Positions 2,305-27,607 are shown, counted from the stretch's first letter. The stretch: DNA of 35,529 nucleotides from a virus (IMGVR_UViG_2529292912_000010), one strand, 5' to 3'. A program made the numbers and translations. The notes: generated by a model from the sequence alone, not told the origin.

Positions 2305-2620
2305 TATAATAAACTTACTTTTTTATCATTTTTCCACTTTAACAACATTTTGCTCCACTTTTCCACGACCAAACAACTTGAAATCTGGTTAAAATAACAC
2401 GCAACACTATTCTTCTTCCTTGAGTCCGCCCGGAACTCGAAAAACAAACCGAGTTAAAGCCATTTTTCACAAAATCGATTTTGGGTCTCACCAAAATTAC
2501 GGGGTTGCATACGCATTCGTTTATTTTCGAACGTGTACATACAAATATGCACAAAAATAATCAAAATTATTTTCTGAGATGCATTATGATATGAACACCA
2601 ATTTCGTATAGAGTCTCACT

Positions 2621-3211
2621 ATGTCTCGAATTTTTGCTTACTGTCGGATATCAACGCTGGATCAGACCACCGAAAATCAACGCCGGGAAATCGAAAGTGC
2701 AGGTTTTAAAATCAAACCTCAGCAAATAATCGAAGAACACATTAGCGGCTCAGCAGCAACCAGTGAGCGTCCTGGTTTTAACCGGTTGCTTGCTCGCCTG
2801 AAATGTGGTGATCAATTGATTGTGACAAAACTGGATCGCCTTGGTTGTAATGCAATGGATATCAGGAAAACAGTGGAACAACTGACCGAAACAGGTATCA
2901 GAGTGCATTGCTTAGCATTGGGGGGCATTGACCTGACCAGTCCAACAGGAAAAATGATGATGCAAGTAATTTCAGCAGTCGCTGAATTTGAACGAGACCT
3001 TTTACTTGAACGCACTCATTCCGGGATAGTAAGAGCCCGGGGCGCAGGGAAACGTTTTGGTCGACCACCTGTGTTAAATGAAGAACAGAAACAGGTGGTA
3101 TTCGAACGAATTAAGTCAGGTGTAAGTATAAGTGCCATTGCCCGGGAATTCAAAACCTCGCGGCAAACCATTTTAAGAGCCAAAGCAAAACTTCAGACAC
3201 CTGACATATAA
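2621..3211 (+). CDS. pinQ: Serine recombinase, resolvase/invertase family (putative DNA invertase), 196 aa
   Basis: N-terminal catalytic-serine motif (YCRISTLDQ), resolvase-like core, C-terminal helix-turn-helix ([18 protein letters not shown]). Adjacent to the tail fibre genes, as for Gin/Pin-type invertases. Confidence 0.85.
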
Positions 3212-3308
3212 AAAATAATCTCGGTGTGAGATGCTTTACGTCTTCCAAGCCACCTTCCTTGCCGTAAATGGAAAGATACATCTAATTATAGAATTTATAT
3301 GTTTTACC

Positions 3309-3884
3309 CTACGGCAGTGCTGGCCATTCAATATCCTGTGCAGTTGACGTATCAACACGGTTCAGCAATACCCGATACTTTTTCCATGCTTCCAGCAACG
3401 AGATTTCTTCCTCCGTTGCAATTTCCAGATCTGCAGCATCCTGAAGCGGCGCAATATGCTCACTGGCTACCTGCATCAGGCTGTTTTTTGTTTCTTCCGC
3501 CTCCCGGATCCGGAACAGTTTTTCTGCTTCCGTATCCTTCACCCAGGCTGTGCCGTTCCACTTCTGATATTCCCCTCCCGGCGATAACCAGGTAACATTT
3601 TCCGGTAACGGACCGAGTTCAGAAATAAATAACGCGTCGCCGGAAGCCACGTCATAAACCGTTTTACCCCGATGATCTTCAACGAGATGCCACGATGCCT
3701 CATCACTGTTGAAAACAGCCACGAAGCCTGCCGGAATATCTGGCGGTGCAATATCGATACTGTTTGCTGGCAGACCTGTATGAGGCGGAATATATGCGTC
3801 ACCTTCACCAATAAATTCATTAGTTCCGGCCAGCAGATTATAAATTTTTATGGTCCGTGGTTGTTCACTCATTCTGAATGCCAT
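3309..3884 (-). CDS. tfa: Tail fibre assembly protein (Tfa), 191 aa
   Basis: 191-aa ORF directly downstream of stf with stop/start overlap at 3884; sequence matches the lambda Tfa (orf-194) family as I recall it. Confidence 0.85.
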
Positions 3885-6800
3885 TATGCAAGCCTCACAA
3901 TATAGTTAAATGCGATGTTTTTGACGGTGTTTTCCGCGTTACCAGCAGCGTTAACGGTGATGGTATGTCCATGTGAACCAATCGCAACGGAGTGCGTATG
4001 AGCACCAATACCGACAGTATGTGCGTGTGCACCTGCGCTTGCAGCAGTACCCGATACAGAGTGCGTATGAGCGCCTGCAGAAGAAGTGTTAACACTGTAT
4101 TTAGAGTAATCAGGTGATCCACTTCCCGGAGCACCACTGGAACCACCTGAAACAAATGTCATCGAATGGGTATGTGCACCGGCTGAAGCAGCCGTACCGC
4201 TAACACTATGGGTATGCGCACCAGTGTTATTCGTGGATTTAGTGCCGTAATCAAACGACGATGTGGTTTTCGTCCCCAAATCCGTACTGGATACGCTGGC
4301 GCTGTGGGTGTGTGATTTAATGCCGTCCTGTTCCTGAGACAATACGGCTCGATCACTGGCGGGCTTGCCCTTAATCGTCCAGCCACGCATATCAGGGATC
4401 ACGCCTGACGGATAAGCGGCTGCAAGTTTCGGGTAAGCAGATTTGTCAAAAGTCTGCCCCTGCATCAGGGCATAACCAGACGGAACGGTATCTGATGGCC
4501 ACGGGATTGGTGCACCGACTGGATAAAACTCTGCAGGAGGATGAGCCGAGGTGTAAAGCTGCGCCCACGGCGACCAGTTTGCGTCGGTCGTATCCCGTCG
4601 TGAACGAATAAATGCCGGAGCATGAGCACCGCTTGTACCACTCCAGCCGATGAGTAACTCACCTTCGCCAACGGCTGTCATCCCTTTCAGGTGAATGATA
4701 TTTCCATACGCTGTTGGATATCCGTTGTTATACACCTCGTATAACTCAAGACCTGTTGCCCCCTGCGTATTGTCTGTCAGCGCGGTTACCCGACCTTTTG
4801 AAGACAGATTAACTGATGATACTGCTGTTCCACCTGACGGTAACGCCCCGATCTCTGATGCCGTTGGCTTATTTCTGGAGTTATAGTCCCTTCGCCAGCC
4901 AGGTGAATAATCTGTTCCGTGATTAATATAGGTAAACTGGGCGTTAGTTGTTCCACCACCAGTGGAGGTGGTCGGTGTGGTAATGCGGATCGTCATCGCT
5001 GACTTTATCCCCATTACTTCAATGACAGCTCCGGCGAGATGAATATTACCGCAGCCAGTATCAGTAATGATTTTATTATTGCCATAAGACCAGGAACCCT
5101 TGCACATCCAGTATGGATGGTTAAATGCTCCCTGAGAATCCAGCCACTCGATAAACTGTGCAGTCGTCCAGTTTCCTGTTGTTGTGCTTACTGACCCACC
5201 GAAGGCACGGCAGGCACCAATATTTTTCGTAAAGGTGTCTTTGCCAGGGATATCCGCACCGTTCTGATCTTTCTGCAGACGTTTCTCAGCATTGTCATTG
5301 ACTGCTTTCACTGCTTTCGATGTCGCAGCAAGCGTTTCAGATGCGCTGTTGGTTGCACTACTGAGCTGGACAATTCCTTTTTGTGCTGTCGTAGCGTCCT
5401 GAGCGGTATATTTCCCGTTAGCCAGGTCATACGCGGCCTTAACGGCTTTTGGCGTTGCCGCCAGTGACTCGGAAGTGCTGTTGGTCGCACTGCTGAGCTG
5501 TACTATCCCCTTTTTCGTCGTGCTCGCATCCTCAAGCGCCACGGCGGATGCAATATCCTCTGCCCGTTTTGCTGCTGTCTCGGCGCGCGTTGCCGCGGAT
5601 TCCGCCGTACTTTTGCTCTGAGCTGCCGCCGTCGCACTACCAGCTGCCTCTGTCGCCTTCGTGGATGCCGTCGTGGCGCTGCCTTTCGCTGCTGATGCCT
5701 GTCTGGTCGCCTCATCTTTTGAAGCAGACGCAGATGATGCCGATGACGCCGCCGAACTGGCGGACGATGCGGCAGCCGTTTTTGAGGATTCTGCGCTGGT
5801 TTCCGACGCTTTCGCGTTCGTCTCGGATGTCTTCGCTGCGGAAGCAGACCTCGCTGCTGCGCTGGCCTGTTCAGTGGCTTCGCCAGCCTTCGTTGTGGCT
5901 GTTGAAGCGGACGATGCGGCGCTTTCTGCCGATTTTCCGGCGGCGCTAGCACTGGCTGAGGCCTGCCCGGCACTTGTTGACGCTGCACTGGCAGACGACG
6001 CAGCCGCTGTTTTTGAGCCTGCCGCAGCTGAGGCACTCTGTTCCGCTGCCGTTTCAGAAGACCTGGCGTTTGTCTCAGACGTCTTTGCCGCCTTCGCGGA
6101 ATTGCCTGCCGCCGTTGCCGAGGAAGCGGCACTACTGGCGCTCGAGGATGCGTTCGTTTCTGATGATTTCGCTGCCTCTTTTGAGGCCGCCGCATCCCGG
6201 GCTGAGGTGGCTGCTTCTGACGCCTTCGTGGTCGCGGCGGATGCAGAAGTGGCTGCTGATTGTTGTGACGCTGCCGCATTCGTTTCTGACGTTTTCGCCG
6301 CAGCGGCACTGGTAGCTGCCGCGCTTTTTGAGGACTCTGCAGCAGCAGCACTTTTCGATGCTTCACTGGCCTTTGTTGATGCCGTTCCTGCGCTGGAAGA
6401 TGCTGACTGAGCCGACGACGCGGCCTGTCCGGCTGACGTGCTGGCTGCGCTTGCTGAGCCTGCAGCATCAGTCGCATGGGTTGCCGCCTCACGGGCTGAT
6501 GTGCCGGCATCGCTGGCTGACTTCTTCGCGGCTGCCGTGTTCTGTGCCACCACGGACGCGTTACGCGCCACCTCTTCCACCATCAGCTCAAAACGGCGCA
6601 GTGCCTCCGGACGGGCATCATCCTCCGTCATGGCACCGAGAAAATCATTCAGCGTACCGGGTCGGGAATCTTCATACACTGTGATGGTCCCGGCATGTGA
6701 CGGCGGGAATCCTTCCACCAACAGAATAACGCTGTACTGACCGTACTCAACGTCCATACTGTAACGCCCGGCTTCATCCGGATTTTCAGATGCCAGCGTG

Positions 6801-6907
6801 TTCACCACCACCGTGGTACTGTTACGTTTTGCTTTCAGCTGGATTGTGCAGTTCTGTACCGGTTTTCCTGTGCCGTCTTTCAGTACACCTGAAATTTTTA
6901 CTGCCAT
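3884..6907 (-). CDS. stf: Side tail fibre protein (Stf), about 1007 aa
   Basis: N-terminus [27 protein letters not shown] matches lambda Stf; ORF track starts two codons earlier at a GTG. Long Ala/Ser/Thr-rich repeat region, two phage tail-fibre repeats ([12 protein letters not shown]...LAAT.KAVKA), and a His-rich C-terminal tip with repeated GAHTHS motifs. Confidence 0.9.
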
Positions 6908-6916
6908 ATTCACCCC

Positions 6917-6945
6917 ACAAAAAAGCCCGCCTGAACCGGCGGGCT
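6917..6945 (-). terminator. Intrinsic terminator-like hairpin between lom and stf
   Basis: Minus-strand reading GCCCGCC-GGTTCA-GGCGGGC followed by TTTTTTGTGG; ends a few nt before the stf ribosome-binding site. Confidence 0.6.
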
Positions 6946-6971
6946 GTCATAACACTGTGTTACCTGGCTAA

Positions 6972-7571
6972 TCAGAATTTATAACCAACACCCACGATGA
7001 ACCCGTCAGTGCGCCAGTCACCACTGCCGGAGCCTTCATAAGCGACATCAATGGCCACGGATTCGGTCGGGTTAAACTGCACGCCAGCTCCCCACGCCAG
7101 AGACGTGTTGCTGTGGCGACCGTCATCACTTCCGGTCAGCACATCGTGCTTTTTCCCCTTGTTGTCAGTTACGCGGAGATAATCCCCGGAGAAAGTCGAC
7201 ACACGGCTGTAAGCCACACCCGCCATCGCATACGCGCTGAACCATTCATTCACGCGCACAGACGGCCCCGCCATTACGCTGAACCAGCGGTTACGAACGG
7301 AATCTTCATGCCAGCGGGTATCGCTGTAACGGGTAATCTGGCGATTCTTGTCTCCTGCATAGCTGAACGACGTCACCATCCCCAGTGTGTCCGTAAACTC
7401 ATAACGGTATTTCACGTTAATCCCGTTCAGATCATCACTGCCGGGAACGTTCGTCCGGGCATGAAGATACCCCGCGCTCAGCGTGGACTGATGTTCAGAC
7501 GCCCATGCAGGCGCACCGGATACGGCCAGACAAATGGCTGCGGACAAAATGGCGGCATAAAGTTTACGCAT
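6972..7571 (-). CDS. lom: Outer-membrane beta-barrel protein Lom (Ail/Lom family), 199 aa
   Basis: Signal peptide ([24 protein letters not shown]), alternating beta-strand pattern, C-terminal aromatic residue (ends GVGYKF); sits between J and stf as in lambda. Confidence 0.85.
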
Positions 7572-7593
7572 AATTACCTCTCGCTTTTCTGCA

Positions 7594-7619
7594 ATAAAAA
7601 AGGCGTCATTTCTGACGCC
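7594..7619 (-). terminator. Intrinsic terminator-like hairpin between J and lom
   Basis: Minus-strand GGCGTCA-GAAA-TGACGCC followed by TTTTTTATT, about 26 nt upstream of the lom ATG. Confidence 0.6.
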
Positions 7620-7637
7620 CGTTCTGGGTTATAAAAT

Positions 7638-11039
<3,402 letters not shown>

Positions 11040-11096
11040 TCATGCTCCATAAACGATAAAACCGCCCGGAGGCGGTTTCACATAAAACATTTTGCA

Positions 11097-11768
11097 TCAG
11101 CGACCAATCACCACAACCTGACCACCATCCCCTTCGTCTGCCGTGCTGATCTCCTGAGAAACCACCCGCGACCCCACGCGCATTTCACCGTACAGAACAG
11201 GCAAAACATTGCCCTGGGCAACCATGTTATCCAGTGAGGAGAAATAGGTGTTCTGCTTACCGTTATCCGTTGTCTGTGTACGGGGAGTTCTGGCTTTCGG
11301 TGCCAGCATCTGCGCCACACCACCGAGCACCATACTGGCACCGAGAGAAAACAGGATGCCGGTCATACCACCGGCCCCAATGGCTGCCCCCCATGCTGCA
11401 AGGGTGGCTCCGGCGGTAAAGAATGATCCGGCAATGGCGGCAGCCCCCAGGACAATCTGGAATACGCCACCTGACTTGGCCCCGGCGACTCTGGGAACAA
11501 TATGAATCACAGCGCCATCAGGCAGAGTCTCATGTAACTGCGCCGTTAACCCGGACGTGCTGACGTCCCGCCCGGCAATCCGTACCTGATACCAGCCGTC
11601 GCTCAGTTTCTGACGAAACGCCGGGAGCTGTGTGGCCAGTGCCCGGATGGCTTCAGCCCCCGTTTTCACACGAAGGTCGATGCGGCGACCAAATCGTTGT
11701 AAATCCCCGTAAAGGCAGATGCGCGCCATGCCCGGTGACGCCAGAGGGAGTGTGTGCGTCGCTGCCAT
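11097..11768 (-). CDS. I: Tail assembly protein I, 223 aa
   Basis: 223 aa, same length as lambda I; overlaps the 3' end of K in another frame as in lambda. Confidence 0.9.
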   Translation of the reverse strand: MAATHTLPLASPGMARICLYGDLQRFGRRIDLRVKTGAEAIRALATQLPAFRQKLSDGWYQVRIAGRDVSTSGLTAQLHETLPDGAVIHIVPRVAGAKSGGVFQIVLGAAAIAGSFFTAGATLAAWGAAIGAGGMTGILFSLGASMVLGGVAQMLAPKARTPRTQTTDNGKQNTYFSSLDNMVAQGNVLPVLYGEMRVGSRVVSQEISTADEGDGGQVVVIGR

Positions 11769-12409
11769 TTGTCGGTGTACCTCTCTCGTTTGCTCAGTTG
11801 TTCAGGAATATGGTGCAGCAGCTCGCCGTCGCCGCAGTAAATTGCGGCGTGATTCGGCACCGATGAACCAAAACAGCACAGCAGCACATCGCCCGGCTGT
11901 GCCGCTGACAACGGCACCTGATACAGCCCCGTCGCCTCCAGATTATCCAGATAGAGATTCTGGCCGTTACGCCACCAGTCATCCTCACGATGAAAGTCCG
12001 GCATCTCAATCCCCGCCAGATGATAAGCATCCCGGAACAGTGTGTAACAGTCCGTCACACCGTGCTCAAAGCGCCGCCCGGTGAGATGCGGCACACAGCG
12101 GAACTTATGAATCGTCCCCCGGCAGACCAGCCACCAAGGCAAATCACTCTGCACCTGCAGCCGCCGGTCGGCCTCACTCAGCCAGGGCAGACCACCGGGG
12201 TGGCTGTGGACCAGCGCCACAATCTCACCCTGCATTTCTGCCTGCAGCCAGTCTTCCGGCGACATACGGAAATACGCCTCCGGCTCACCGGAGATATTCA
12301 CGCAGGGGAAATATCTTTCCCCCTCCGGCGTGCTTACCACGAAGCCGCACGACTCCGCTGGCGCACATCGCCGGGCGTGCGCCAGAATCGCTGATTCTGT
12401 CTGTGTCAT
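11666..12409 (-). CDS. K: Tail assembly protein K (Mov34/JAB plus NlpC/P60-like), 247-aa ORF; the start giving the 199-aa form I recall for lambda K is at 12265
   Basis: HSHP metalloprotease-like motif (ALVHSHPGG) and a conserved Cys/His region; ORF begins 6 nt after the L stop. Internal Met 49 (MSPEDW) would give 199 aa. Confidence 0.85.
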   Translation of the reverse strand: MTQTESAILAHARRCAPAESCGFVVSTPEGERYFPCVNISGEPEAYFRMSPEDWLQAEMQGEIVALVHSHPGGLPWLSEADRRLQVQSDLPWWLVCRGTIHKFRCVPHLTGRRFEHGVTDCYTLFRDAYHLAGIEMPDFHREDDWWRNGQNLYLDNLEATGLYQVPLSAAQPGDVLLCCFGSSVPNHAAIYCGDGELLHHIPEQLSKRERYTDKWQRRTHSLWRHRAWRASAFTGIYNDLVAASTFV

Positions 12410-12414
12410 GGGAT

Positions 12415-13113
12415 TTACTGCGAAAGTTTGTTAATGGAAAGGAAGCCGCCAAAGTTGCCGACGTTATTGCGGAACTTACAACCGCTCAGGCATTTGCTGC
12501 ATTTATCCTTCGTGATATCGGACGTTGGCTGGTCATATTCATCCGCGACAGCCGGACCGCTATAACCGCACTCGTCACCGCGATAGGTCCAGGTGCAGGT
12601 GTTGGCCAGCATGATACGTCCCGGAAAAACAGCGCCATCCGTTTCCGTCGGCGTGGACAGTACAAAGGAGGCACTCACCGCGCTCAGTTCGCTGCACTGC
12701 TCAATGCGCCAGCGGCTGATCACCTCCTGCTCCGGATCGGCGCCACTGTTTCCGTTGACGAAGTTCACCGCATCCAGAAAACGGGCGTAAACCTTACGCC
12801 GGACCACCGTTCCACCGACCAGACTCTGCAGATCTTCCGCCATCCCGGTGACCATACCGTACAGGTTAGAAACCGTCAGTGTGGGGCGCGTACTGGTGCC
12901 TTTGCCATTCAGTTCAAAACCACTCCCCTGAATGGGATACGGCTGATACTGTCGCCCCTGCCAGGTGACCGGCTCACCTTTTTCGTTCTGCTCATTACAG
13001 AAAAAATAACGTTCTCCACCGACCTCTGTCAGGTCGATTTCCCAGAGCACCACGCTGGCCGACTGCTCCGCACGGGTGCATTCATTCAGTGTTTCCTGCC
13101 GGATATCCTGCAT
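12415..13113 (-). CDS. L: Tail tip protein L, 232 aa
   Basis: 232 aa, same length and position as lambda L; Cys-rich C-terminus (CSKCLSGC). Confidence 0.9.
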   Translation of the reverse strand: MQDIRQETLNECTRAEQSASVVLWEIDLTEVGGERYFFCNEQNEKGEPVTWQGRQYQPYPIQGSGFELNGKGTSTRPTLTVSNLYGMVTGMAEDLQSLVGGTVVRRKVYARFLDAVNFVNGNSGADPEQEVISRWRIEQCSELSAVSASFVLSTPTETDGAVFPGRIMLANTCTWTYRGDECGYSGPAVADEYDQPTSDITKDKCSKCLSGCKFRNNVGNFGGFLSINKLSQ

Positions 13114-13442
13114 CAGTTCACCACCTGTTCAAACTCTGCGCTGAACTCAACACGCAGCATACTGACCCGCGACGACCATTTTGCGCAGGTCACCTTTATC
13201 TGCCGCCACTCATAAGGCGGCGTCCACAGAAAGGCTTTCCAGCCCCCGTGCTCAGCCAGAAACGACTCCAGCGCCGTGGCCTCCCAACGGGGAACAGAAA
13301 GCGTCACGCTGTACGTTTTCAGGTCGGCATTCAGCCCGGCAGGCGCTCGCTGGGAATAGCCATCACCAAAGCGCACTTTCCTGACGGAAGGGGCCGAAGC
13401 CACATCCATACCGGGTTTCACTTTCCAGCGGAAGGTCTTCAT
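13113..13442 (-). CDS. M: Tail tip protein M, 109 aa
   Basis: 109 aa, same as lambda M; start overlaps the H stop. Confidence 0.9.
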   Translation of the reverse strand: MKTFRWKVKPGMDVASAPSVRKVRFGDGYSQRAPAGLNADLKTYSVTLSVPRWEATALESFLAEHGGWKAFLWTPPYEWRQIKVTCAKWSSRVSMLRVEFSAEFEQVVN

Positions 13443-16018
13443 CGTTCACCTCCGGAGAACAGACCACCATCGCGCATCTGTGCCTGAATTTCATCACGGG
13501 CACCTTTGCGGGCCATGTCATACACTGCCTTCATCATCTGTGGACCTGGCAGACCATTCGTACCGTCGTTCTGAATCACCACGTGATTGTTCTGATTAAA
13601 ATTAATGCCTTCAGCCCGCCGCATCTGCGCCGGACTTCCGGCACCGCCCACATAACCACCTTCCGCATAGCCCCGCATCAGGCGGTACAGGTTGCCGACA
13701 CCAATTCGGCTGGTTGCCTCCTTCGTGAAGACAAATTCACCACGGTGAACAATCCCCGCTGGCTCATATTTGCCGCCGGTTCCCGTAAATCCTCCGGTTG
13801 CAAAATGGAATTTCGCCGCAGCTGCCTGAATGGCTGTACCGCCTGATGCGGATGCGCCGCCACCAACAGCCCCGCCAATGGCGCTACCGATACTCCCGAC
13901 AATCCCCACCATTGCCTGCTTAAGCAGAATTTCTGTCATCATGGACAGCACGGAACGGGTGAAGCTGCGCCAGTTCTGCTCACTGCCGGTCAGCATCGCC
14001 GCCATATTCTGCGCAATACCATCAAAGGTCTGCGTGGCTGCACTTTTAACCTGCGACATACTGTCCGTGGCGCTCTCTTCCCACTCACTCCAGCCGGACC
14101 TGAGGCCTGCCATCCAGCTCCCGCGAAGCTGGTCTTCAGCCGCCCAGGTCTTTTTCTGCTCTGACATGACGTTATTCAGCGCCAGCGAATTATCGCCATA
14201 CTGTTCCTTCAGGCGCTGTTCTGTGGCTTCCCGCGCTGCCTGCCGGTCAGTAAGCCCCCGGTTTTTCGCCTCAATGGCTGCCCGTTTTGCCCGTTGTTGC
14301 TGTGCGAACTTATCCGCCTGCTGCGCCAGCGCGTTCAGGCGCTCCTGATACGTAACCTTGTCGCCAAGTGCAGCCAGCTGGCGTTTGTACTCCAGCGTCT
14401 CATCTTTATGCGCCAGCAGGGATTTCTCCTGTGCGGACAGCTGGCGACGTTGCGCCGCCTCCTCCAGTACCGCGAACTGACTCTCCGCCTTCCACAAATC
14501 CCGGCGCTGCTGGCTGATTTTCTCATTTGCTCCGGCATGCTTCTCCAGCGTCCGGAGTTCAGCCTGAAGCGTCAGCAGGGCAGCATGAGCACTGTCTTCC
14601 TGACGATCGCCCGCAGACACTTTCACGCCGGACTGTTTCGGCTTTTTCAGCGTCGCTTCATAATCCTTTTTCGCCGCCGCCATCAGCGTGTTGTAATCTG
14701 CCTGCAGGATTTTCCCGTCTTTCAGTGCCTTGTTCAGTTCTTCCTGACGGGCGGTATATTTCTCCAGCGGCGTCTGCAGGCGTTCGTAAGCCTTCTGCGC
14801 CTCTTCGGTATATTTCAGCCGTGATGCCTCAGACTCGGCCCAGTCCTTTGCTGCCATCTCTCTGGCCTTTTCAAGATCGGCCTGCAACGTGGCGGCTGAA
14901 AGCCCAAGTTGCGCATTCGCTCTGTCCTCCCATGCTCCCCGGAGATTGGCAAGAAATGCTGAGGTTTTACCGCGCCGGTGGCTCCGGCTCTGATACCACT
15001 GCCATTTTTTGTCCGCCTCATCAAAAGCCTTTTCTGCTTTCTCCAGCATTCCCTGGGCAGTGTCCGGGCGACCAATATCCAGCACCGAATCCCACATGGA
15101 TTTGAATGCCCGTGCTGTCCTGTCTGCCCTGGTCTCCAGCGTGCCCATGTTCTCTTTCAGGCGGCGGGTCTGGTCATCAAACCCTTTCGTTGCGGCCTCG
15201 TTCGCCGCCTGCAATGCCCCGGCTTCATCTCCGGAACGCTGCAACTGAGCAACATACGCAATCTGCTCCGCCGTCACGTTATGGAACTGACGTGCCATCG
15301 CTGTCAGTCCCGACGTCGGGTCTGTGGTCAGCTTCCCGAAGGCTTCAGCGACCTTGTCCACCTCCACGCCGGATGCAGAGGAGAAACGCGCCACACTCTG
15401 GCTGATCGCCTCAAACTGCTCACCACCACGCACACCGGCATTCACCAGCGCCGTCAGTGACTCGCTGGTCTGGTTAAACGTCAGCCCTGCCGCCTGCCCG
15501 GCTCTGGACAGGGCCAGAATACGATCTGCCGTCAGTCCCGCCTGATTGCCGGAAAGGACCAGCGTTTTGTTGAAATCGGACAGGGTTGAGTTGCCCTGAT
15601 ACCAGGCATACGCCAGCGCACCGGTCGCCACCGCCAGCGAGGTGGCCCCCACCATCGGCAGGGTGATCGCACCGGCAAGCCCCCTGAACATGGGGATCAT
15701 CCCGCCGAAGGAGTCCTTAACCTGACCACCCTGTTGCAGCAGGATCAGCCACGGACTTTGCCCGCCTGCAAGCTGCGTGGCCACGTCGGTGAACTGTGCA
15801 GGCAGCATACGCATGGCGGCTTTATACTGCCCGACGGAAATCCCCGCTTTCTGTGCAGCCAGCGCCTGTCGGCTCAGCGACTGTTCAACGACTGCCGCTG
15901 TTTTTTTCGCATCAGTTTCCGTACCGGAAAAATGACGCCTGACTCTGGCCATCTGCTCGTCAAATCTGGCCGCATCCAGACTTAAATCAACGACCAGATC
16001 GCCTACCGGTTCAGCCAT
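13439..16018 (-). CDS. H: Tail tape-measure protein H, 859 aa
   Basis: Long, largely alpha-helical, charged ORF with a Gly-rich hydrophobic segment near the C-terminus; N-terminus MAEPVGDLVVDLSLDAARFDEQ matches lambda H as recalled. Confidence 0.95.
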   Translation of the reverse strand: MAEPVGDLVVDLSLDAARFDEQMARVRRHFSGTETDAKKTAAVVEQSLSRQALAAQKAGISVGQYKAAMRMLPAQFTDVATQLAGGQSPWLILLQQGGQVKDSFGGMIPMFRGLAGAITLPMVGATSLAVATGALAYAWYQGNSTLSDFNKTLVLSGNQAGLTADRILALSRAGQAAGLTFNQTSESLTALVNAGVRGGEQFEAISQSVARFSSASGVEVDKVAEAFGKLTTDPTSGLTAMARQFHNVTAEQIAYVAQLQRSGDEAGALQAANEAATKGFDDQTRRLKENMGTLETRADRTARAFKSMWDSVLDIGRPDTAQGMLEKAEKAFDEADKKWQWYQSRSHRRGKTSAFLANLRGAWEDRANAQLGLSAATLQADLEKAREMAAKDWAESEASRLKYTEEAQKAYERLQTPLEKYTARQEELNKALKDGKILQADYNTLMAAAKKDYEATLKKPKQSGVKVSAGDRQEDSAHAALLTLQAELRTLEKHAGANEKISQQRRDLWKAESQFAVLEEAAQRRQLSAQEKSLLAHKDETLEYKRQLAALGDKVTYQERLNALAQQADKFAQQQRAKRAAIEAKNRGLTDRQAAREATEQRLKEQYGDNSLALNNVMSEQKKTWAAEDQLRGSWMAGLRSGWSEWEESATDSMSQVKSAATQTFDGIAQNMAAMLTGSEQNWRSFTRSVLSMMTEILLKQAMVGIVGSIGSAIGGAVGGGASASGGTAIQAAAAKFHFATGGFTGTGGKYEPAGIVHRGEFVFTKEATSRIGVGNLYRLMRGYAEGGYVGGAGSPAQMRRAEGINFNQNNHVVIQNDGTNGLPGPQMMKAVYDMARKGARDEIQAQMRDGGLFSGGER

Positions 16019-16451
16019 ACCGGACTCCTCCTGCGATCCCTTCTGATACTGTCATCAGCATTACGTCATCCTCCGTCATGTCCGCCACATCCGGGGAAGC
16101 GGGGATAACTTCATTCCCGTCCGGGCCAAAACGAACGCCTCCGGCAAGCCCTGCCGCTTTCTGCATCAGCACATCATCTTCAGGCTCTTCGTCAGCCTCG
16201 CGCCGGTTCAGCAGACTGAAATCCAGCGGATGCATATCCGGATCGCTGAAAAACAGGCTGAGCACGGTGTACGTCAGCCCGGAAAAGTGCATATCCAGCA
16301 GAACATCATGAAAATAATGGGTACTGTAAAAGCGGTGCCAGTCGGCATACTCCGTGGATGACATCCCGGCAAGCATGGCACGCCAGTCGGGTCGCCCCAT
16401 CTCGCGCGCCAGTTTCAGGGCAAAACTCAGCTCACCGTCGAACACTTTCCC
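16011..16451 (-). CDS. T: T portion of the tail assembly chaperone G-T fusion, expressed by -1 frameshift from G
   Basis: The -1 frame stays open from the slippery site to 16011 with no independent ATG or ribosome-binding site (ORF track start is a GTG at 16445); same arrangement as lambda G/G-T. Confidence 0.8.
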   Translation of the reverse strand, partial: GKVFDGELSFALKLAREMGRPDWRAMLAGMSSTEYADWHRFYSTHYFHDVLLDMHFSGLTYTVLSLFFSDPDMHPLDFSLLNRREADEEPEDDVLMQKAAGLAGGVRFGPDGNEVIPASPDVADMTEDDVMLMTVSEGIAGGVRYG

Positions 16452-16849
16452 GCAGAAACAGGCTCTGCAGGCCCGGCGTCCTCTGTCTGTTCAGGAGCAT
16501 CATTCACCACAAACTCATACATACCGGACAGCCGGTACACCACGTTTTCAGCATGAGAAATTGCCTCCGTGGGCCAGGTGGTAAGCACTTCCTGCTCAAT
16601 CTGTTTAACGGCTTCATTCATGGAAGGCATCTGCGTCTTCTGCGGATGGTTATGCCACAGGGACATCGCCACCAGAAACGCGCCGGTTCTGATGGCGTCT
16701 TCCACAGTAAACTTCCGGTTGCTGTCTGACTCCGCCTGTTCTGCCTGCCGTTTCATCAGGGCGAGATGCTCAATACGCTGCAGGGCTGACAGTTCAGAAA
16801 GCGTGACGGTCACACCGTTATGTTCAAATGATTCGGTTTTCAGGAACAT
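16427..16849 (-). CDS. G: Tail assembly chaperone G, 140 aa
   Basis: 140-aa ORF (MFLKTESFEHNGVTVTLSELSALQ) upstream of the tape-measure gene, ending with the slippery site. Confidence 0.9.
   Translation of the reverse strand: MFLKTESFEHNGVTVTLSELSALQRIEHLALMKRQAEQAESDSNRKFTVEDAIRTGAFLVAMSLWHNHPQKTQMPSMNEAVKQIEQEVLTTWPTEAISHAENVVYRLSGMYEFVVNDAPEQTEDAGPAEPVSAGKCSTVS
16445..16451 (-). other. Programmed -1 ribosomal frameshift slippery heptamer G GGA AAG (G to G-T)
   Basis: Minus strand reads GCG GGA AAG TGT in the G frame, six codons before the G stop; the -1 frame continues GGG AAA GTG TTC GAC into T. Confidence 0.8.
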
Positions 16850-16864
16850 CGCTGACTCTCCGGA

Positions 16865-17605
16865 TTAACTGGCGGTGACGTTGATTTCTGCAACCGCAGC
16901 AAGTTCACCATTACCGGATACGACCGGAATGTTGACCTTGCCTGCAGCAACACCTTTCACGGTGATGGTCATACCACTGACCGACACGGTGGCTTTTGTT
17001 TTATCCGCTGACACCGCACGGAAGCTCTTGTCGGTTGCGCCTTCCGGCTGGAATGCCACGGTCAGCGTGGTGCTCTTCCCTTTCACTACGGAAGCGCTGG
17101 CTGGCGTCACGGTCATACCGGTTGCCGCTGTTACCGTGCTGCGATCTTCTGCCATCGACGGACGTCCTACGTTGGTGACTTTCACCGTGCGGGTGATCAC
17201 GTCCTTCGCCGTCACAGCCTTACCGATACTGCTGACCCAGCCGCGGAACACATCGACCGTGCCGTTCGGGAAGCGGATTTTATAGGCACGGGTATCACCT
17301 TCATTAAACCACGCCAGCAGCGCCTGCTGCCCCTGCTCTCCGGGCATCCACGCCAGCGTGAAGCTGGTATCTCCGGCAGATTTCTGCCCCTGTCCGGTCG
17401 CGGTCCAGTCCGCATCTTCATCATCGAGATAACTGTCGTCATAGGACTCAGCGGTCAGTTCGCCGGGCGTCAGGTCTTTAACCTTTGCCAGACGCGACCA
17501 GTCATTGTCTGAAAGCGGGTTTGCATAAGGGTCGCCGCTCCCGTTATAAACCCACAGTGTGGTCCCGGCCCCTTTCACCGGTGCCAGAGGATTTGGTGTT
17601 GGCAT
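16865..17605 (-). CDS. V: Major tail tube protein V, 246 aa, with C-terminal Ig-like domain
   Basis: Start placed at the internal ATG ([14 protein letters not shown]) preceded by a GAGGA Shine-Dalgarno; ORF track extends 10 codons further upstream. Confidence 0.9.
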
Positions 17606-17612
17606 ATCGTCC

Positions 17613-18008
17613 TCACATTTCATAGGTAATGACATAAGTCAGATCGGCTGAACTCCACAGGCCCGCATCATCGTCGCGCCGGTAGTCATAGCCACTGGCC
17701 ACCATACTGGTGATCAAATCTGACAGTGCCGGGATATCGCTCATCACCGGATAAATCCGGGACTCCATCCACGAATCCAGCTCTGAATCCGGCACCTGAG
17801 CAGGCAGGAAAACTTCAATATGCAGCTCCGCCTGCCAGGTATCGCTGTCCAGCTCTTCGCCCGTGTATTCAGCGCCGGTGAGATAAACGGCAATTGCCGG
17901 AAAATCTTCCTCATCAAAAACAGCGGGGCGACCATCAAAAAGCGTCGCCCCGGTGTCATGCTTCTCCAGTGCATCCAGTACGGCTGCACGGAGTTCAGTA
18001 TGTTTCAT
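17613..18008 (-). CDS. U: Tail terminator protein U, 131 aa
   Basis: 131 aa as lambda U; start overlaps the Z stop. Confidence 0.9.
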
Positions 18009-18583
18009 CGCTTTATTACCATCCTCAGTTGATGCTGCAGCGCATAGCCCAGCTCTTTCGGAAGACGTTCACGCCGTATCCGCTCAATATTTTGTTTAAA
18101 CGCCGTGGTCAGCGGCACCGCCATCGGGATTTTCACCACATCAATGGGGTAACGGTTTTTCCCGGCCACACGCTGCATGACATGCCAGCGGCCATTTTTC
18201 AGTTGCTGAATAAACGCGCCGGGAATACGACGGTTTCCCACCACAAGCACGCTGCCGCCACCTTTCAGGACTGAACGCTGCCCCTTTTTACGACGCCTGC
18301 GTCGGGACAGGACAATCCGCGCGTTACCCAGCTTTATTACGGGCAAATCCCCCCGGTTAACCCTGATTCTGGCCTGCGGATTTTTGACCGTGGCCCTTTT
18401 CAGCCTGGCCCTTTCCTTTACCAGTTTCCGGCGTACCTTTGTCTCACGGGCAACCTGTGACTCCGACTGCGATATCGCGGATGAAGCAACGCGGTTAATG
18501 GCCATTGCGGCGGCACCGGGCACCGCCGTTCTGCTGATACGGCTGAGGTTTTCAACGGCCTGCTCAAGACCTTTTATGGCCAT
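18005..18583 (-). CDS. Z: Tail completion protein Z, 192 aa
   Basis: 192 aa as lambda Z; basic Arg-rich central region. Confidence 0.9.
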   Translation of the reverse strand: MAIKGLEQAVENLSRISRTAVPGAAAMAINRVASSAISQSESQVARETKVRRKLVKERARLKRATVKNPQARIRVNRGDLPVIKLGNARIVLSRRRRRKKGQRSVLKGGGSVLVVGNRRIPGAFIQQLKNGRWHVMQRVAGKNRYPIDVVKIPMAVPLTTAFKQNIERIRRERLPKELGYALQHQLRMVIKR

Positions 18584-18594
18584 ACATCCCCCTT

Positions 18595-18948
18595 TCAGCG
18601 GCGACGGTTAACGGCAGGCGGTACGCCCCGCCCAAGCCAGAGATGACAGCTTCCGCCATCATCCGGCGAAATCCGGTCTATCCAGAAGTTTTCCTCACCG
18701 ATGGTCAGCGTGTCGCCGCGCCGCAGCTGCCGCACATCATCAGTCCGGACAAACAGGGACGGGCTGGAGCCTTCAACGCGTACGCCCTGTCCGGCATAGC
18801 TGATATTTTCAGGGTCATCAAAAACACCACGTATTACTGCGCCGGACTGCTCACCGGATGTCATGGTGGCTGACGTTCCCATGTACCCGCGTATCGTTTC
18901 ATCGGCGCAGGCAATGGCAGCATCGAACAGGTTATCGAAATCAGCCAC
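18595..18948 (-). CDS. FII: Head-tail joining protein FII, 117 aa
   Basis: 117 aa, position between FI and Z. Confidence 0.9.
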   Translation of the reverse strand: MADFDNLFDAAIACADETIRGYMGTSATMTSGEQSGAVIRGVFDDPENISYAGQGVRVEGSSPSLFVRTDDVRQLRRGDTLTIGEENFWIDRISPDDGGSCHLWLGRGVPPAVNRRR

Positions 18949-18959
18949 AGCGCCTCCCG

Positions 18960-19355
18960 TTATTGCATTCTGGCCAGGCCGCGCTCTGTCATTTCAGCTG
19001 CCACACCGGCAGAGACACGGAACGCCGTTCCCGGCAGCACAAATGCCACAGCCTCATCCCGCGTGGCGTGAAGTGCATCAGTATGCAGCGTCACCAGTGC
19101 CACAACCGTGACCAGAGCAGCCGTATCAGTCACGGTATCCGTCTGTGCTGATACCACCTCATTTTCATGTCCGGTCAGTGCATTTTCCGGGCTGACAGAC
19201 GTGTCCTGACCGGCTGCGTCATCCGTGTCATCAAGCTCCTCTTCCAGCTCTGCCACACGGAGCGCCAGTTCTTCTTTCGTCCCCGTCAGGCTGACATCAC
19301 GGTTCAGTTGCTCACCCAGCGACCGGAGACGGGCAATCAGTTCATCTTTCGTCAT
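18960..19355 (-). CDS. FI: DNA packaging/head assembly protein FI, about 131 aa
   Basis: Start placed at MTKDELIARL, preceded by a GGAGGAG Shine-Dalgarno; ORF track extends 13 codons upstream. Confidence 0.85.
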   Translation of the reverse strand: MTKDELIARLRSLGEQLNRDVSLTGTKEELALRVAELEEELDDTDDAAGQDTSVSPENALTGHENEVVSAQTDTVTDTAALVTVVALVTLHTDALHATRDEAVAFVLPGTAFRVSAGVAAEMTERGLARMQ

Positions 19356-19396
19356 GAACTCCTCCACAGAGAGAAAATGGCCCCGAAGGGCCACGA

Positions 19397-20422
19397 TTAC
19401 GCCAGTTGTACGGAAACGAACTCATCAGGGTCAGCCAGCAGCATCAGCGGTGCTGACTGAATCATGGTGAACTCACGCGCCGGATCGCCGGTGGTCACCC
19501 AGTTTTTCGGGTAACGGGCAGAGGCGTTAATGCCTTCGCGCTGTGCGTCCGCATCCTGAATGCAGCCATAGGTGCGCAGACCGCGAGCCTGAGTGTTCCC
19601 CAGCACCATCGTGTTGTCCGGCAGGAAGTTCTTTTTGACGCCGTTTTCCACGTACTGTCCGGAATACACGACGATGGCCACATCGCCATACATTCCCTTA
19701 TAGGACACCGCTTTGCCCAGGTCTTTTACCGCTGTCTCCAGCTCGGAATGAGAGCCGCGACGGGTATCCAGCTTCTCCTTGACGGCTTTGAAGGAACGGA
19801 ACAGCGCCCAGCCTTTCGGATCGAACACGATGATATTCACCACGCCGCTGGCGTTCAGCGCGTAGGCTTCGATATCGTCGGTCGGGTCATACGTGGACTT
19901 GTCACGCTTGCTCCACTCCGTGCCGCCGGACTGCGTGATGTTGTTCGCCGCACTGCGGCCCATATCCACCTCAACCGGATCGAAGGCTTCACCGGTCATG
20001 GTGTATTTGCCCTTGAGCACGGCAGAAACGGCCTGCATCTCTTCAACCTGAGCAATGGCCAGCTCTTCGTCTCGCATGTTCTGCATGATGATGCGACGGC
20101 GGCGGTAAGCCGGGTCCGCCAGATTCTGTGGATCTTCATCCGGCAGGCGACGCAGGGTCATCTGCGGATTCACCTCATGCTTCGGCTTGACATATCCCGG
20201 TGTAAATTCAGAGGTGGAGCCGCCACGGGAGCGGATAACCTCACCGGAAACAATCGGCGAAACGTACAGCGCCATGTTTACCAGTCCCGGAATTTGTGAG
20301 AGATAGACTTTCTCCGTGGTGAAGGGATAGCTCTCACGGAAAAAGAGACGCAGAAACAGCGGATCAAACTTAAATTTCTGCTCATTTGCCGCCAGCAGCT
20401 GGGCGGTTGTGTACATCGACAT
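19397..20422 (-). CDS. E: Major capsid protein E (HK97 fold), 341 aa
   Basis: Start at MSMYTTAQLLAANEQ; ORF track extends 9 codons upstream; ends ...DPDEFVSVQLA as recalled for lambda E. Confidence 0.95.
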   Translation of the reverse strand: MSMYTTAQLLAANEQKFKFDPLFLRLFFRESYPFTTEKVYLSQIPGLVNMALYVSPIVSGEVIRSRGGSTSEFTPGYVKPKHEVNPQMTLRRLPDEDPQNLADPAYRRRRIIMQNMRDEELAIAQVEEMQAVSAVLKGKYTMTGEAFDPVEVDMGRSAANNITQSGGTEWSKRDKSTYDPTDDIEAYALNASGVVNIIVFDPKGWALFRSFKAVKEKLDTRRGSHSELETAVKDLGKAVSYKGMYGDVAIVVYSGQYVENGVKKNFLPDNTMVLGNTQARGLRTYGCIQDADAQREGINASARYPKNWVTTGDPAREFTMIQSAPLMLLADPDEFVSVQLA

Positions 20423-20477
20423 AAAAAAATCCCGTAAAAAAAGCCGCACAGGCGGCCTTTAGTGATGAAGGGTCAGG

Positions 20478-20810
20478 TTAAACGATGCTGATTGCCGTTC
20501 CGGCAAACGCGGTCCGTTTTTTCGCCTCGTCGCTGGCAGCCTCCGGCCAGAGCACATCCTCATAACGGAACGTGCCGGACTTGTAGAACGTCAGTGTGGT
20601 GCTGGTCTGGTCAGCAGCAACCGCAAGAATGCCAACGGCAGCACCGTCGGTGGTGCCATCCCACGCAACCAGCTTACGGGTGGAGGTGTCCAGCATCAGC
20701 GGGGTCATTGCAGGCGCTTTCGCACTCAATCCGCCGGGCGCGGTTGCGGTATGAGCCGGGTCACTATTGCCCAGCGGCTGGTAATGGGTAAAGGTTTCTT
20801 TGCTCGTCAT
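20478..20810 (-). CDS. D: Capsid decoration protein D, 110 aa
   Basis: [12 protein letters not shown]... matches lambda gpD as recalled. Confidence 0.9.
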
Positions 20811-20819
20811 AAACATCCC

Positions 20820-21215
20820 TTACACTGGTGTGTTCAGCAAATCGTTAACGGCATCAGATGCCGGGTTACCTGCAGCCAGCGGTGCCGGTGCCCCCTGCAT
20901 CAGACGATCCAGCGCAGTGTCACTGCGCGTCTGTGCACTCTGTGGTGCTGCGGCCAGAATACGGCGGGCCGTTTCCACGGTCATACCGGGGGTTTCGGCC
21001 AGCACGCGTGCCTGTTCTTCGCGTCCGTGAGCCTCCTCACAGTTGAGGATCCCCATAATGCGACTGTTTTCTGCCGCAACCGCTGCGGTGATCTGCGCGT
21101 TCACGTCCGGCTGCGCCGCGCTGGCGTTCTCGCCCTCCGTCGCTTGCACCACGCCAGTAACGTCAGCCTGCGAAGCAGTGGCTGAAACAGTTGTTGATTG
21201 AGTCTCTTTGGTCAT
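20820..21215 (-). CDS. nu3: Scaffolding protein Nu3, nested in-frame in the 3' third of C, 131 aa
   Basis: Internal ATG (MTKETQSTTV) preceded by an AGGAGG Shine-Dalgarno inside the C frame; exactly 131 aa to the shared stop. Confidence 0.8.
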   Translation of the reverse strand: MTKETQSTTVSATASQADVTGVVQATEGENASAAQPDVNAQITAAVAAENSRIMGILNCEEAHGREEQARVLAETPGMTVETARRILAAAPQSAQTRSDTALDRLMQGAPAPLAAGNPASDAVNDLLNTPV

Positions 21216-22119
21216 TCGCCCTCCTGAGAGACGGGATTTACGTGCATCCAGTGCATCACGCATGACGGTGATCGCATCGGTGCTGTTAACAAGTTCATCA
21301 GCCAGTCCGGCATCAATGGCCTCCTGACCGCTGTACACTGCAGCCTCGGTATCCAGCACAGCCTGCACGGACAGGCCGGTATATGCCGACACCATCTGCG
21401 CAAACATCCGGCGGGTTGCGTCCATCCGGGACTGCAGTGTCTCCCGGACGTCATCCGGAAGATGGCTGTAGGGGTTGCCATCCACCTTATGGCTGCCGCT
21501 GTAAATCAGCGTGATTTCCACACCCTGTTTCTCCAGCGCAGCACCGTAATTACTGTGAGCCATCATGACGCCGATGGAGCCTGTCCGGGCGGTCTGCGTG
21601 ACCAGACGCCGGGAGGCGGCACTGGCAAGCAACTGACCTGCACTGCAGTTCATGTCGTTGGCAAGCGCCCATACCGGTTTTATGTCACGCACACGGGCGA
21701 TGATGTCAGCGCAGTCAAATGCCCCCGCCACCATCCCGCCGGGCGTGTCCATATCGAGCAGAATGCCGTCCACCATCGGGTCGCTGGCAGCCTGTTGCAG
21801 ACGGGCGATAATGCCGTTGTAACCGGTCATCCCCGAATACGGCTGCAGCGCTCGCGTCCGGCTGACCAGCGTGCCGGACACCGGCAGCACGGCGATGCTG
21901 TTCATGACCTGATAACTGCGGGCCTGTCGTGGTCCGTCATCATCACCGGATAACGCCAGCGTCGCGGGTGCCTCTCCGGCAGCTAGGCTGTCACCGGACA
22001 CCGCATCCGTCAGGCGGCTGATCCCAAGCTGGCTTGCAAGCGCACAAAAGAAAACCCGCGCATAGGCGGGTTCAAGCATCAGCGGCTCATTAAAGGCCAT
22101 GCTGGCAATATGCGGGAGA

Positions 22120-22139
<20 letters not shown>
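20820..22139 (-). CDS. C: Prohead protease / minor capsid protein C (ClpP/S49-like), 439 aa, GTG start
   Basis: GTG start at 22137-22139 gives the 439-aa lambda C length; start overlaps the 3' end of B by 20 nt. Confidence 0.9.
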
Positions 22140-25820
<3,681 letters not shown>

Positions 25821-25846
<26 letters not shown>

Positions 25847-26366
25847 TCAGCAACCCCGGTATCAGTTCATCCAGCGCGGCTGCTTTGTTCATGGCTTTGA
25901 TGATATCCCGTTTCAGGAAATCAACATGTCGGTTTTCCAGTTCCGGAAAACGCCGCTGCACCGACAGGGGGATCCCGTCGAGAATACTGGCAATTTCACC
26001 TGCGATCCGCGACAGCACGAAAGTACAGAATGCGGTTTCCACCACTTCAGCTGAGTCTCTGGCATTCTTCAGTTCCTGTGCGTCGGCCTGCGCACGCGTA
26101 AGTCGATGGCGTTCGTACTCAATAGTCCCTGGCTGGAGATCTGCCTCGCTGGCCTGGCGCAGTTCTTCAACCTCCCGGCGCAGCTTTTCGTTCTCAATTT
26201 CAGCATCCCTTTCGGCATACCATTTTATAACGGCGGCAGAGTCATAAAGCACCTCATTACCCTTGCCACCGCCTCGCAGAACGGGCATTCCCTGTTCCTG
26301 CCAGTTCTGAATGGTACGGATACTCGCACCGAAAATGTCAGCCAGCTGCTTTTTGTTGACTTCCAT
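25821..26366 (-). CDS. nu1: Terminase small subunit Nu1, 181 aa
   Basis: 181 aa; N-terminal winged helix-turn-helix region (MEVNKKQLADIFGASIRTIQNWQEQGMP); immediately downstream of cos. Confidence 0.95.
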
Positions 26367-26543
26367 TGTTCATTCCACGGCCAAAAACAGAGAAAGGAAA
26401 CGACAAAGGCCCAAAAGCTCGTTTTCAGCACCTGTCGTTTCCTTTCTTTTCAGGGGGTATTTTAAATAAAAACATTAAGTTACAACGAAGAAGAACGGAA
26501 ATGCCTTAAACCGGAAAATTTTCATAAATAGCGAAAACCCGCG

Positions 26544-26555
26544 AGGTCGCCGCCC
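26544..26555. other. cosN cohesive-end site (12-nt GGGCGGCGACCT, read on the minus strand)
   Basis: Forward strand reads aggtcgccgccc. Flanking sequence on the Nu1 side (cosB with the GGAAACGACAG inverted repeat) and on the far side (cgtaacctgtcggatcgccggaaag) matches the lambda cos region from memory. Confidence 0.85.
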
Positions 26556-26754
26556 CGTAACCTGTCGGATCGCCGGAAAGGACCCGCAAAATGATAATAA
26601 TTATCATCTGCATGTCACAACGTGCATCTACGCCATCAAACCACGTCAAATAATCAATTATGACGCAGATATCGTATTAATTGATCTGCATCAACTTAAC
26701 GTAAAAACAACTTCAGACAATACAAATCAGCGACACTGAATACGGGACAACCTC

Positions 26755-26988
26755 ATGTCAACGAAGAACAGAACCCGCAGAACAACAACCCGCAACATCC
26801 GCTTTCCTAACCAAATGATTGAACAAATTAACATCGCTCTTGAGCAAAAAGGGTCCGGGAATTTCTCAGCCTGGGTCATTGAAGCCTGCCGCCGGAGACT
26901 GTGCTCAGAAAAAAGAGTTTCTTCTGAAGCAAACAAAGAAAAGAGTGACATTACTGAATTGCTCAGAAAACAGGTCAGACCAGATTGA
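26755..26988 (+). CDS. ynfO: Small prophage protein, 77 aa
   Basis: Basic, Cys-containing 77-aa ORF just beyond cos, in the position of ynfO in Qin-type prophages (recollection). Confidence 0.55.
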   Translation: MSTKNRTRRTTTRNIRFPNQMIEQINIALEQKGSGNFSAWVIEACRRRLCSEKRVSSEANKEKSDITELLRKQVRPD

Positions 26989-27030
26989 AGCAATTTAGAT
27001 AATCGTGCAGACTACGCCCCCTCATATCAC

Positions 27031-27456
27031 ATGGAAGGTTTATCTATGGATCAGGTAGTCATTTTTAAACAAATATTTGATAAAGTTCGAAACGATTTAA
27101 ACTATCAATGGTTTTATTCTGAGCTAAAACGTCACAATGTCTCACATTACATTTACTATTTAGCCACAGAGAATGTTCATATTGTATTAAAAAATGATAA
27201 TACAGTGTTATTAAAGGGCCTAAAAAACATTGTGTCTGTCAAATTTTCAAAGGATAGGCATCTTATAGAAACGACCTCTAATAAGCTGAAATCCAGAGAG
27301 ATCACATTTCAGGAATACAGAAGAAACCTTGCTAAAGCAGGAGTTTTTCGGTGGGTTACAAATATCCACGAACAAAAAAGATATTACTATACCTTTGATA
27401 ATTCATTACTATTTACTGAAAGCATCCAGAAAACTACACAGATCTTACCACGCTAA
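27031..27456 (+). CDS. ydfO: DUF1398-family prophage protein, 141 aa (alternative start at 27046)
   Basis: [19 protein letters not shown]...; gene order after ynfO matches Qin; function unknown. Confidence 0.6.
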
Positions 27457-27607
27457 ACCATAACGTCCGGCTTCTCTCACTCCTGAGCCGGACTGCATTG
27501 GTTTAATAAAAACCATCAACAATTGTGATTTAGATATTCGGAACCATTCAAATATAACAAAACCCCGTAAAAACGAGGTTTATGGATAAATTTTATTATT
27601 GAATACA

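Follow-up and report, generated by a model that had tools for sequence, protein, structure and literature searches.

At the left end of the window, as we call the whole stretch of 35,529 nucleotides analyzed here, lies an entire ydfJ gene (1-1284, minus strand). The genes that follow, from pinQ through tfa, stf, lom, and J to A and Nu1, are all on the minus strand as well. Beyond the cos site, two genes, ynfO and ydfO, lie on the plus strand, and a further minus-strand series continues to the antiterminator Q gene and beyond. The stretch from 25821 to 27456 comprises Nu1, a lambda-type cos, and then ynfO and ydfO, and it would act as the packaging hinge of the phage. Its features are listed below; cosB was located by homology with lambda 1-200 in a base-by-base alignment, cosN by blastn alignments that abut at 26555/26556, and cosQ by its conservation in the alignment.

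25821-26366 (minus strand), Nu1, terminase small subunit, 181 aa (Pfam PF07471, E value 9e-101)
26391-26503 (minus strand), cosB, three R-type terminase-binding repeats
~26391-26402 (minus strand), cosB repeat R1
~26436-26446 (minus strand), cosB repeat R2
~26490-26503 (minus strand), cosB repeat R3
26544-26555 (minus strand), cosN cohesive end, reverse complement of GGGCGGCGACCT
26579-26585 (minus strand), cosQ heptamer, GGGTCCT in lambda orientation (lambda 48473-48479)
26755-26988 (plus strand), ynfO, 77 aa, DUF3950 (Pfam PF13132, E value 2.7e-21)
27031-27456 (plus strand), ydfO, DUF1398 (Pfam PF07166, E value 1.7e-46; RefSeq start at 27046)
27465-27493 (plus strand), hairpin just 3' of the ydfO stop codon (minimum free energy, -21.9 kcal/mol; z score, -6.3; 0 of 200 shuffles as stable)

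Packaging genes and the cos region

The initial annotation of this DNA had placed Nu1, ynfO, and ydfO within 25821-27456, and the Pfam matches bear out both the coordinates and the descriptions of these genes. The match of Nu1 to PF07471 is full length, the protein aligns with lambda Nu1 at 99.4% identity across 181 aa, and the last 26 nt of the gene overlap the start of gene A, an overlap identical to that of lambda; in near-identical genomes, RefSeq names this gene nohA. A Nu1-family terminase small-subunit gene directly adjoining cos is a mark of lambda-type packaging, and this is the arrangement found here. Lambda, K-12 Qin, and the window all have the same 12-nt cosN sequence, GGGCGGCGACCT, with window base 26555 corresponding to lambda base 1 and window base 26556 to lambda base 48502. 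In cosB, all three CGTTTCC-type repeats are kept at the lambda R3, R2, and R1 positions, with one change beside R3. We take the names and roles of the cosB subsites to be as in lambda, in which the interval between R3 and R2 holds the IHF site, and the heptamer GGGTCCT at lambda 48473-48479 is likewise assumed to be cosQ in both position and role. Near-identity to lambda suggests that this cos is functional: Nu1 would bind the cosB repeats, DNA would be packaged via a terminase cut at cosN, and Q-dependent late transcription would cross the cos region into Nu1 and A. Espion and colleagues are said to have described, in 1983, lambda-qin hybrids whose late region, cos included, was of Qin origin.

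The direction of ynfO opposes that of the late operon. DLP12 ylcI shares the first 54 codons of ynfO, as does an unannotated 64-codon open reading frame (ORF) of lambda that runs from lambda 48303 downwards; translation of the lambda minus strand gives an ORF product that agrees with YnfO at each of its first 50 residues. The homologs of ydfO are lambdap78 and DLP12 ybcV, with DNA identities of 84.4% to lambda 47527-47023 and 85.3% to DLP12. Both ynfO and ydfO are plus-strand genes inside a minus-strand late operon, and the GC fraction of ydfO is 0.317 versus 0.527 for Nu1, the orientation and composition of moron-type genes. A consensus scan of 26300-28000 yielded no convincing promoter for either gene (2 promoter-like sites versus 5.0 expected from shuffled sequences), and a terminator scan of the same interval yielded 3 terminator-like sites versus 1.3 expected. 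The hairpin that follows ydfO is strong but without a T run; its lambda and DLP12 counterparts are no more stable than shuffled sequences (z scores, 0.22 and -0.30), the Qin-type version being the only strong one.

Layout of the window and its two modules

On either side of the cos region lie two large modules, the first defined by tblastn of 24 lambda proteins and by blastn and the second by comparison with K-12 Qin, with gene names of the second taken from the K-12 and RefSeq annotations.

3309-26366 (minus strand), lambda-type morphogenesis module (Nu1, A, W, B, C/Nu3, D, E, FI, FII, Z, U, V, G, T, H, M, L, K, I, J, lom, stf, tfa)
27476-35115 (minus strand), Qin-type accessory, lysis, and Q module (gnsB, ynfN, ynfR, ynfQ, cspI, Rz/Rz1, R, ydfR, S, ynfU, cspB, cspF, Q [ydfT], ydfU, rem), 99.55% identical to K-12 Qin and with no blastn match to lambda

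A one-for-one correspondence with lambda from Nu1 to tfa had been proposed, and it is essentially correct: by tblastn, each of the 24 lambda morphogenesis proteins (Nu1 to Tfa) is matched by a window counterpart, with the order conserved, and gene lengths match across the module, the exceptions being Lom, Stf, H, and the end of J. The 20 proteins from Nu1 to J are 88.6 to 100% identical to their lambda counterparts over their full length (Nu1, 99.4%; A, 99.4%; W, 100%; B, 98.1%; E, 99.1%; T, 100%; K, 100%; H, 88.8%; J, 89.2%). Whole-window alignment to lambda (NC_001416) gave high rather than low identity across the structural genes, at 95.8 to 97.3% over 8080-26555: by blastn, window 15033-26555 corresponds to lambda 11527-1 at 97.25% and window 8080-14830 to lambda 18461-11712 at 95.8%. 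Relative to lambda, the window carries divergent alleles of Lom, Stf, and the J tip. Lom (6972-7571; 199 versus 206 aa) is 45% identical to lambda Lom, and Stf (3884-6913, minus strand) is a single intact ORF of 1009 aa, with a tail-fiber N-terminal domain, fiber repeats, and a collar domain, that is split in sequenced lambda as orf-401 and orf-314. H has six extra residues (859 aa versus 853 aa in lambda). The window loses its DNA similarity to lambda over 7100-8080, an interval that takes in the last ~150 codons of J, and the divergence of the J end and of lom points to another receptor-binding tip and another outer membrane protein allele.

Two further observations concern this module. Within gene H, DNA similarity to both lambda and Escherichia phage PhiR42_1 lapses for ~200 bp (14830-15033), and inside tfa there is a full-length Rfam match to IS009 (3343-3541, minus strand, 221 bits).

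The outer parts of the window follow Qin. The pinQ/ydfK end abuts ydfJ at the ydfJ-proximal Qin integration site, and 1-4107 is 98.8% identical to the K-12 segment ydfJ-ynfT-ydfK-pinQ-tfaQ. Beyond cos, the gene order from ynfO through Q had been described as that of Qin, and 25838-35115 is indeed collinear with K-12 Qin, with 99.55% identity over 9.28 kb and the late and accessory genes in the order ynfO, ydfO, gnsB, ynfN, cspI, rzpQ, rrrQ, ydfR, essQ, cspB, cspF, ydfT, ydfU, and rem. We consider the window very probably to be an Escherichia coli chromosomal segment with a full-length Qin-family lambdoid prophage at the K-12 Qin locus. Two Rfam matches to the cspA thermoregulator above the gathering score (28425-28809 and 31318-31710, both minus strand; 116 and 159 bits) extend over both the leader and the coding sequence of the prophage cold shock genes cspI and cspB.

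Similarity to K-12 Qin and to PhiR42_1 ends at 35115, at the position of hokD, and the ORF at 35158-35529 (minus strand) encodes the C-terminal portion of an IS3-family transposase, with rve domains. For an 830-bp query from the right end of the window, no genome searched gave an end-to-end match at near-100% identity, the best being 98.2% in several joined pieces. The prophage copy in the window is interrupted by this insertion sequence (IS) element. Neither relBE nor the early region falls within the window, which stops inside the IS fragment at 35529; the immunity and integrase end (dicA/dicC, dicF, dicB, and intQ) lies beyond. This immunity and integration end is present in the near-identical relatives in strain 1368KP and in PhiR42_1. 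Because similarity to K-12 Qin and PhiR42_1 stops at 35115 beside the transposase fragment, the prophage in the window may itself be defective.

Where similarity to lambda ends

The initial annotation had joined the two modules at cos and had taken the AT-rich stretch beyond cos as a mark of that junction. The step in composition is real and sharp: the GC fraction is 0.568 for 7600-26555 versus 0.403 for 26556-33000, and it runs at ~0.55 to 0.60 over 5000-26000 and at 0.33 to 0.40 over 26500-29000. A two-segment maximum-likelihood fit puts the change point at 26349 (support interval, 26302-26588), with 0.551 on one side versus 0.366 on the other. The same fit applied to lambda puts its change point at coordinate 207 (support interval, 113-375), which maps to window base 26349, and the GC fraction of lambda is 0.569 in the left arm and 0.400 in the right end (46400-48502, the last 2.1 kb). 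Since the lambda change point falls at the homologous base, the step is not evidence for lambda/Qin recombination at cos. The GC step at the start of Nu1 is inherited lambda-type architecture, a GC-rich left arm against an AT-rich right end.

Similarity to lambda also continues beyond cos. Past cosN, window 26556-26917 corresponds to lambda 48502-48141 at 95% over 362 bp, and similarity is found again at 26972-27475 (lambda 47527-47023, 84.4%), across lambdap78/ydfO. Between these two blastn segments lies the following feature.

26918-26971 (no strand assigned), Qin-type 54-bp segment, seen as an unaligned interval in blastn (window 26917 to 26972 versus lambda 48141 to 47527)

Lambda and DLP12 have ~613 bp in its place, including lambdap79/ybcW, and the 54-bp segment is an internal replacement within a shared block. 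In a five-way alignment, the similarity of lambda and DLP12 to the window ends at 27475/27476, ~20 nt past the ydfO stop codon and inside the hairpin, and blastn finds no lambda match between 27476 and the window end. Relative to lambda there are two breakpoints, the small replacement at 26918-26971 and, at 27475/27476, the point where similarity stops. By these alignments, the lambda/Qin breakpoint on the cos-distal side is 27475/27476, between ydfO and gnsB and ~900 bases past cos. Of the proposed seam, the existence of two modules stands, and its position at cos does not, as lambda identity crosses cos.

DLP12, the third element compared, has breakpoints as in lambda, with identities to the window of 97.6% over 25539-26917 and 85.3% over 26968-27475, and its order in K-12 is borD, ybcV (DUF1398), ybcW, ylcI (DUF3950), cos, nohD, and aaaD. 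It shares with the window the cos-proximal block and the alleles of a short patch around cosQ, and it differs in its lambda-like far side (bor, ybcW, and lambda-type R/Rz at 98%). Lambda resembles the window in the order, lengths, and overlaps of the genes from Nu1 to J, in its near-identical cos, in having ydfO and ynfO homologs by cos, and in the GC step; it differs in having bor and an unrelated Rz/R/S/Q region past its ydfO homolog and an extra 613 bp with lambdap79 between its ynfO and ydfO homologs. Nu1, cos, and the DUF3950 and DUF1398 genes are found in lambda, DLP12, and Qin, suggesting that they travel together in three lambdoid lineages. Nu1, cos, ynfO, and ydfO make up one block common to the three elements at 84 to 98% identity. 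Such a block would serve as a homologous linker for the reassortment of head/tail and lysis modules and is not itself a breakpoint. Experiments by De Paepe et al. showed that lambda recombines with the defective prophages of K-12 via identity blocks, that it has such blocks in common with Qin, Rac, and DLP12, and that lambda-DLP12 recombination junctions cluster next to cos (PMC3945230).

Could the modules nevertheless have been joined at cos itself, by recombination at the terminase-cut end, with the GC step as its mark? The support interval of the GC change point (26302-26588) takes in cosN, cos is a documented hot spot for recombination between lambda and DLP12 (PMC3945230), and a 60-bp patch at 26572-26631 has a different relatedness from its surroundings, so that small cos-bounded exchanges do occur. 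Against this, identity to lambda holds at 95% for the 362 bp past cosN and at 84% across ydfO, lambda and DLP12 have the same genes beyond cos, the homologous base in lambda has the same GC step, and the patch is a microexchange inside a block common to all the elements, not a module boundary. We regard a seam at cos as unlikely and rejected it on the basis of the lambda and DLP12 identity across cos and the equal change point in lambda; a boundary past ydfO is the reading that we retain.

The patch deserves mention in its own right. It lies within 60 bp beyond cosN, includes cosQ, and contains 10 variable sites, at all of which K-12 Qin equals lambda and the window, PhiR42_1, and DLP12 have the other allele. 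Between window positions 26503 and 26891, K-12 Qin and lambda show zero differences. Cos-stimulated recombination has been reported on the side of cosN where the patch lies (PMC3945230). One tentative explanation, which we put forward as possible rather than probable, is that the patch reflects a cos-initiated gene conversion between lambda and Qin within the K-12 lineage. If so, part of the right cohesive-end region of laboratory lambda came from Qin, or went to Qin.

Full-length and deleted forms of Qin

Another question is how the Qin prophage of K-12, a defective lambdoid prophage known to have lost genes (PMC5069750), is related to the full-length element. The initial annotation had noted that K-12 Qin has a Nu1-like fragment directly beside stf and had suggested that K-12 Qin may derive, by deletion, from an element of this kind. 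In K-12, nohA does abut stfQ, and the sequence at the nohA position is related to that of the window. Blastn matches of K-12 Qin to the window cover 1-4107 (98.8%), 4173-4788 (96.1%), and 25838-35115 (99.55%, nohA to hokD), with nothing between 4788 and 25838, and base-by-base alignment of the junction together with a check of the NohA and StfQ proteins defines a single gap.

4789-25839 (no strand assigned), 21,051-bp segment absent from K-12 Qin

The missing segment spans stf codon 709 to Nu1 codon 176. The K-12 junction reads GCGCGGTTA followed directly by TATTCACTC, in which the left side is window stf as far as 4788 and the right side is window Nu1 from 25838 onward. At its core, GGTTA/TATTCAC, the dinucleotide TA is the only sequence common to both ends, and the endpoints are ambiguous by this shared TA. 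NohA consists of Nu1 residues 1 to 176 (174 of 176 identical) followed by 13 out-of-frame residues, and StfQ consists of Stf residues 709 to 1009, with a GTG start codon in Nu1-derived DNA. Two genes cut mid-codon and a microhomology of 2 nt are together the signature of an illegitimate deletion. K-12 Qin (NC_000913.3, 1632277-1652745) resembles the window in its site directly after ydfJ and in the order from nohA, ynfO, and ydfO to rem and hokD; it differs in lacking head and tail genes, in carrying NohA (a shortened Nu1) fused to StfQ (a shortened Stf), and in having hokD-relBE where the window has the IS3-family fragment. As judged from the junction, K-12 Qin would have arisen by one illegitimate deletion of 21,051 bp that reached from the interior of stf to the last codons of Nu1, and its derivation from a full-length element by a single deletion is strongly supported.

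The full-length arrangement recurs in E. coli. With at least 80% of 25000-28500 covered, it was found in 635 of 5,426 complete genomes, and among the matches listed for this interval, the best have at least 99.5% identity. In 800 genomes, stf is intact across the left K-12 breakpoint, and ATCC 8739 matches the window at 100% over stf 4300-5300. The nohA-stfQ junction of K-12 is contiguous in ~370 genomes; the matches listed are laboratory derivatives of K-12, such as C600 and NEB Turbo. Strain 1368KP carries the same prophage with an integrase and an excisionase annotated. Furthermore, Escherichia phage PhiR42_1 (PV340562.1; 48,668 bp) has been deposited as a complete phage genome, its host given as E. 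coli ECOR13. Its order is int, xis, exonuclease, dicA/dicC-type immunity, relBE, hokD, rem, Q, lysis, cos, and Nu1 on to stf, a Qin-type early, lysis, and accessory order joined to the lambda-type Nu1-to-stf genes, and its identity to the window is 98.9% over 25000-28500 and 98.1% over 15033-35115. The two differ at the distal end of J (77.8% over 8080-8453 and no match over 7677-8079) and at 35115, where the similarity ends and the window has the IS fragment. In the literature collection searched, no paper described PhiR42_1 or the ECOR lambdoid phage set.

Two other explanations can be weighed against these distributions. One is that the juxtaposition is an assembly chimera of a lambda-like prophage and Qin residing in one genome, as many E. 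coli genomes hold several lambdoid prophages with these repeats and the matching places per genome have a median of 2 and a maximum of 14. However, the 3.5-kb junction is contiguous at an identity of at least 99.5% in independently assembled complete genomes, among the matches listed, and it is contiguous in the PhiR42_1 genome at 98.9%. With 635 independent complete genomes and a phage genome showing the same junction, an assembly artifact was ruled out and its probability is negligible. The other is that the polarity is reversed, the short K-12-like form being ancestral and the full-length prophages having regained 21 kb of morphogenesis genes when an infecting lambda-like phage recombined with them by double crossover at the Nu1 and stf/tfa homologies. 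Homology is present at both flanks, and recombination between lambda and Qin through stf/tfa homology occurs at about 2e-6 (PMC3945230). Yet the K-12 junction, with two ORFs cut mid-codon and out of frame and 2 nt in common, is that of a deletion product, a rescue by homologous recombination would still need an earlier full-length form, and the full-length form is the commoner one, with diverse hosts and a deposited phage genome among its carriers. An ancestral short form, which we hold to be very improbable, was ruled out by the out-of-frame truncated ORFs and the 2-nt microhomology. The preferred polarity, loss in K-12 and not gain elsewhere, draws on the truncated ORFs and parsimony and is, to judge by these, strongly supported.

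DLP12 offers a parallel. An internal deletion has likewise removed its morphogenesis genes, with different endpoints, joining a terminase A fragment (aaaD) to tfaD; in the K-12 DLP12 comparison sequence this deletion is seen at 6835-8098. DLP12 and Qin, both lambdoid prophages of K-12, decayed in parallel with different endpoints.

The full-length Qin-type architecture is already known from the intact prophages and the deposited phage in public databases, and the arrangement is ordinary lambdoid mosaicism, with nothing in it beyond the textbook. In the literature collection searched, no published statement of the Qin deletion endpoints was found, and the exact positions in K-12 (stf codon 709, Nu1 codon 176, and the TA microhomology) may be unstated in print. 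The base-exact account of the 21,051-bp deletion describes how K-12 Qin became defective and explains the odd gene models of nohA and stfQ. The boundary between the lambda-type and Qin-type modules is corrected to a position past ydfO, not cos. The conserved block that flanks cos is a clean example of the homology used in module swaps among lambdoid phages, a principle already established experimentally (PMC3945230).
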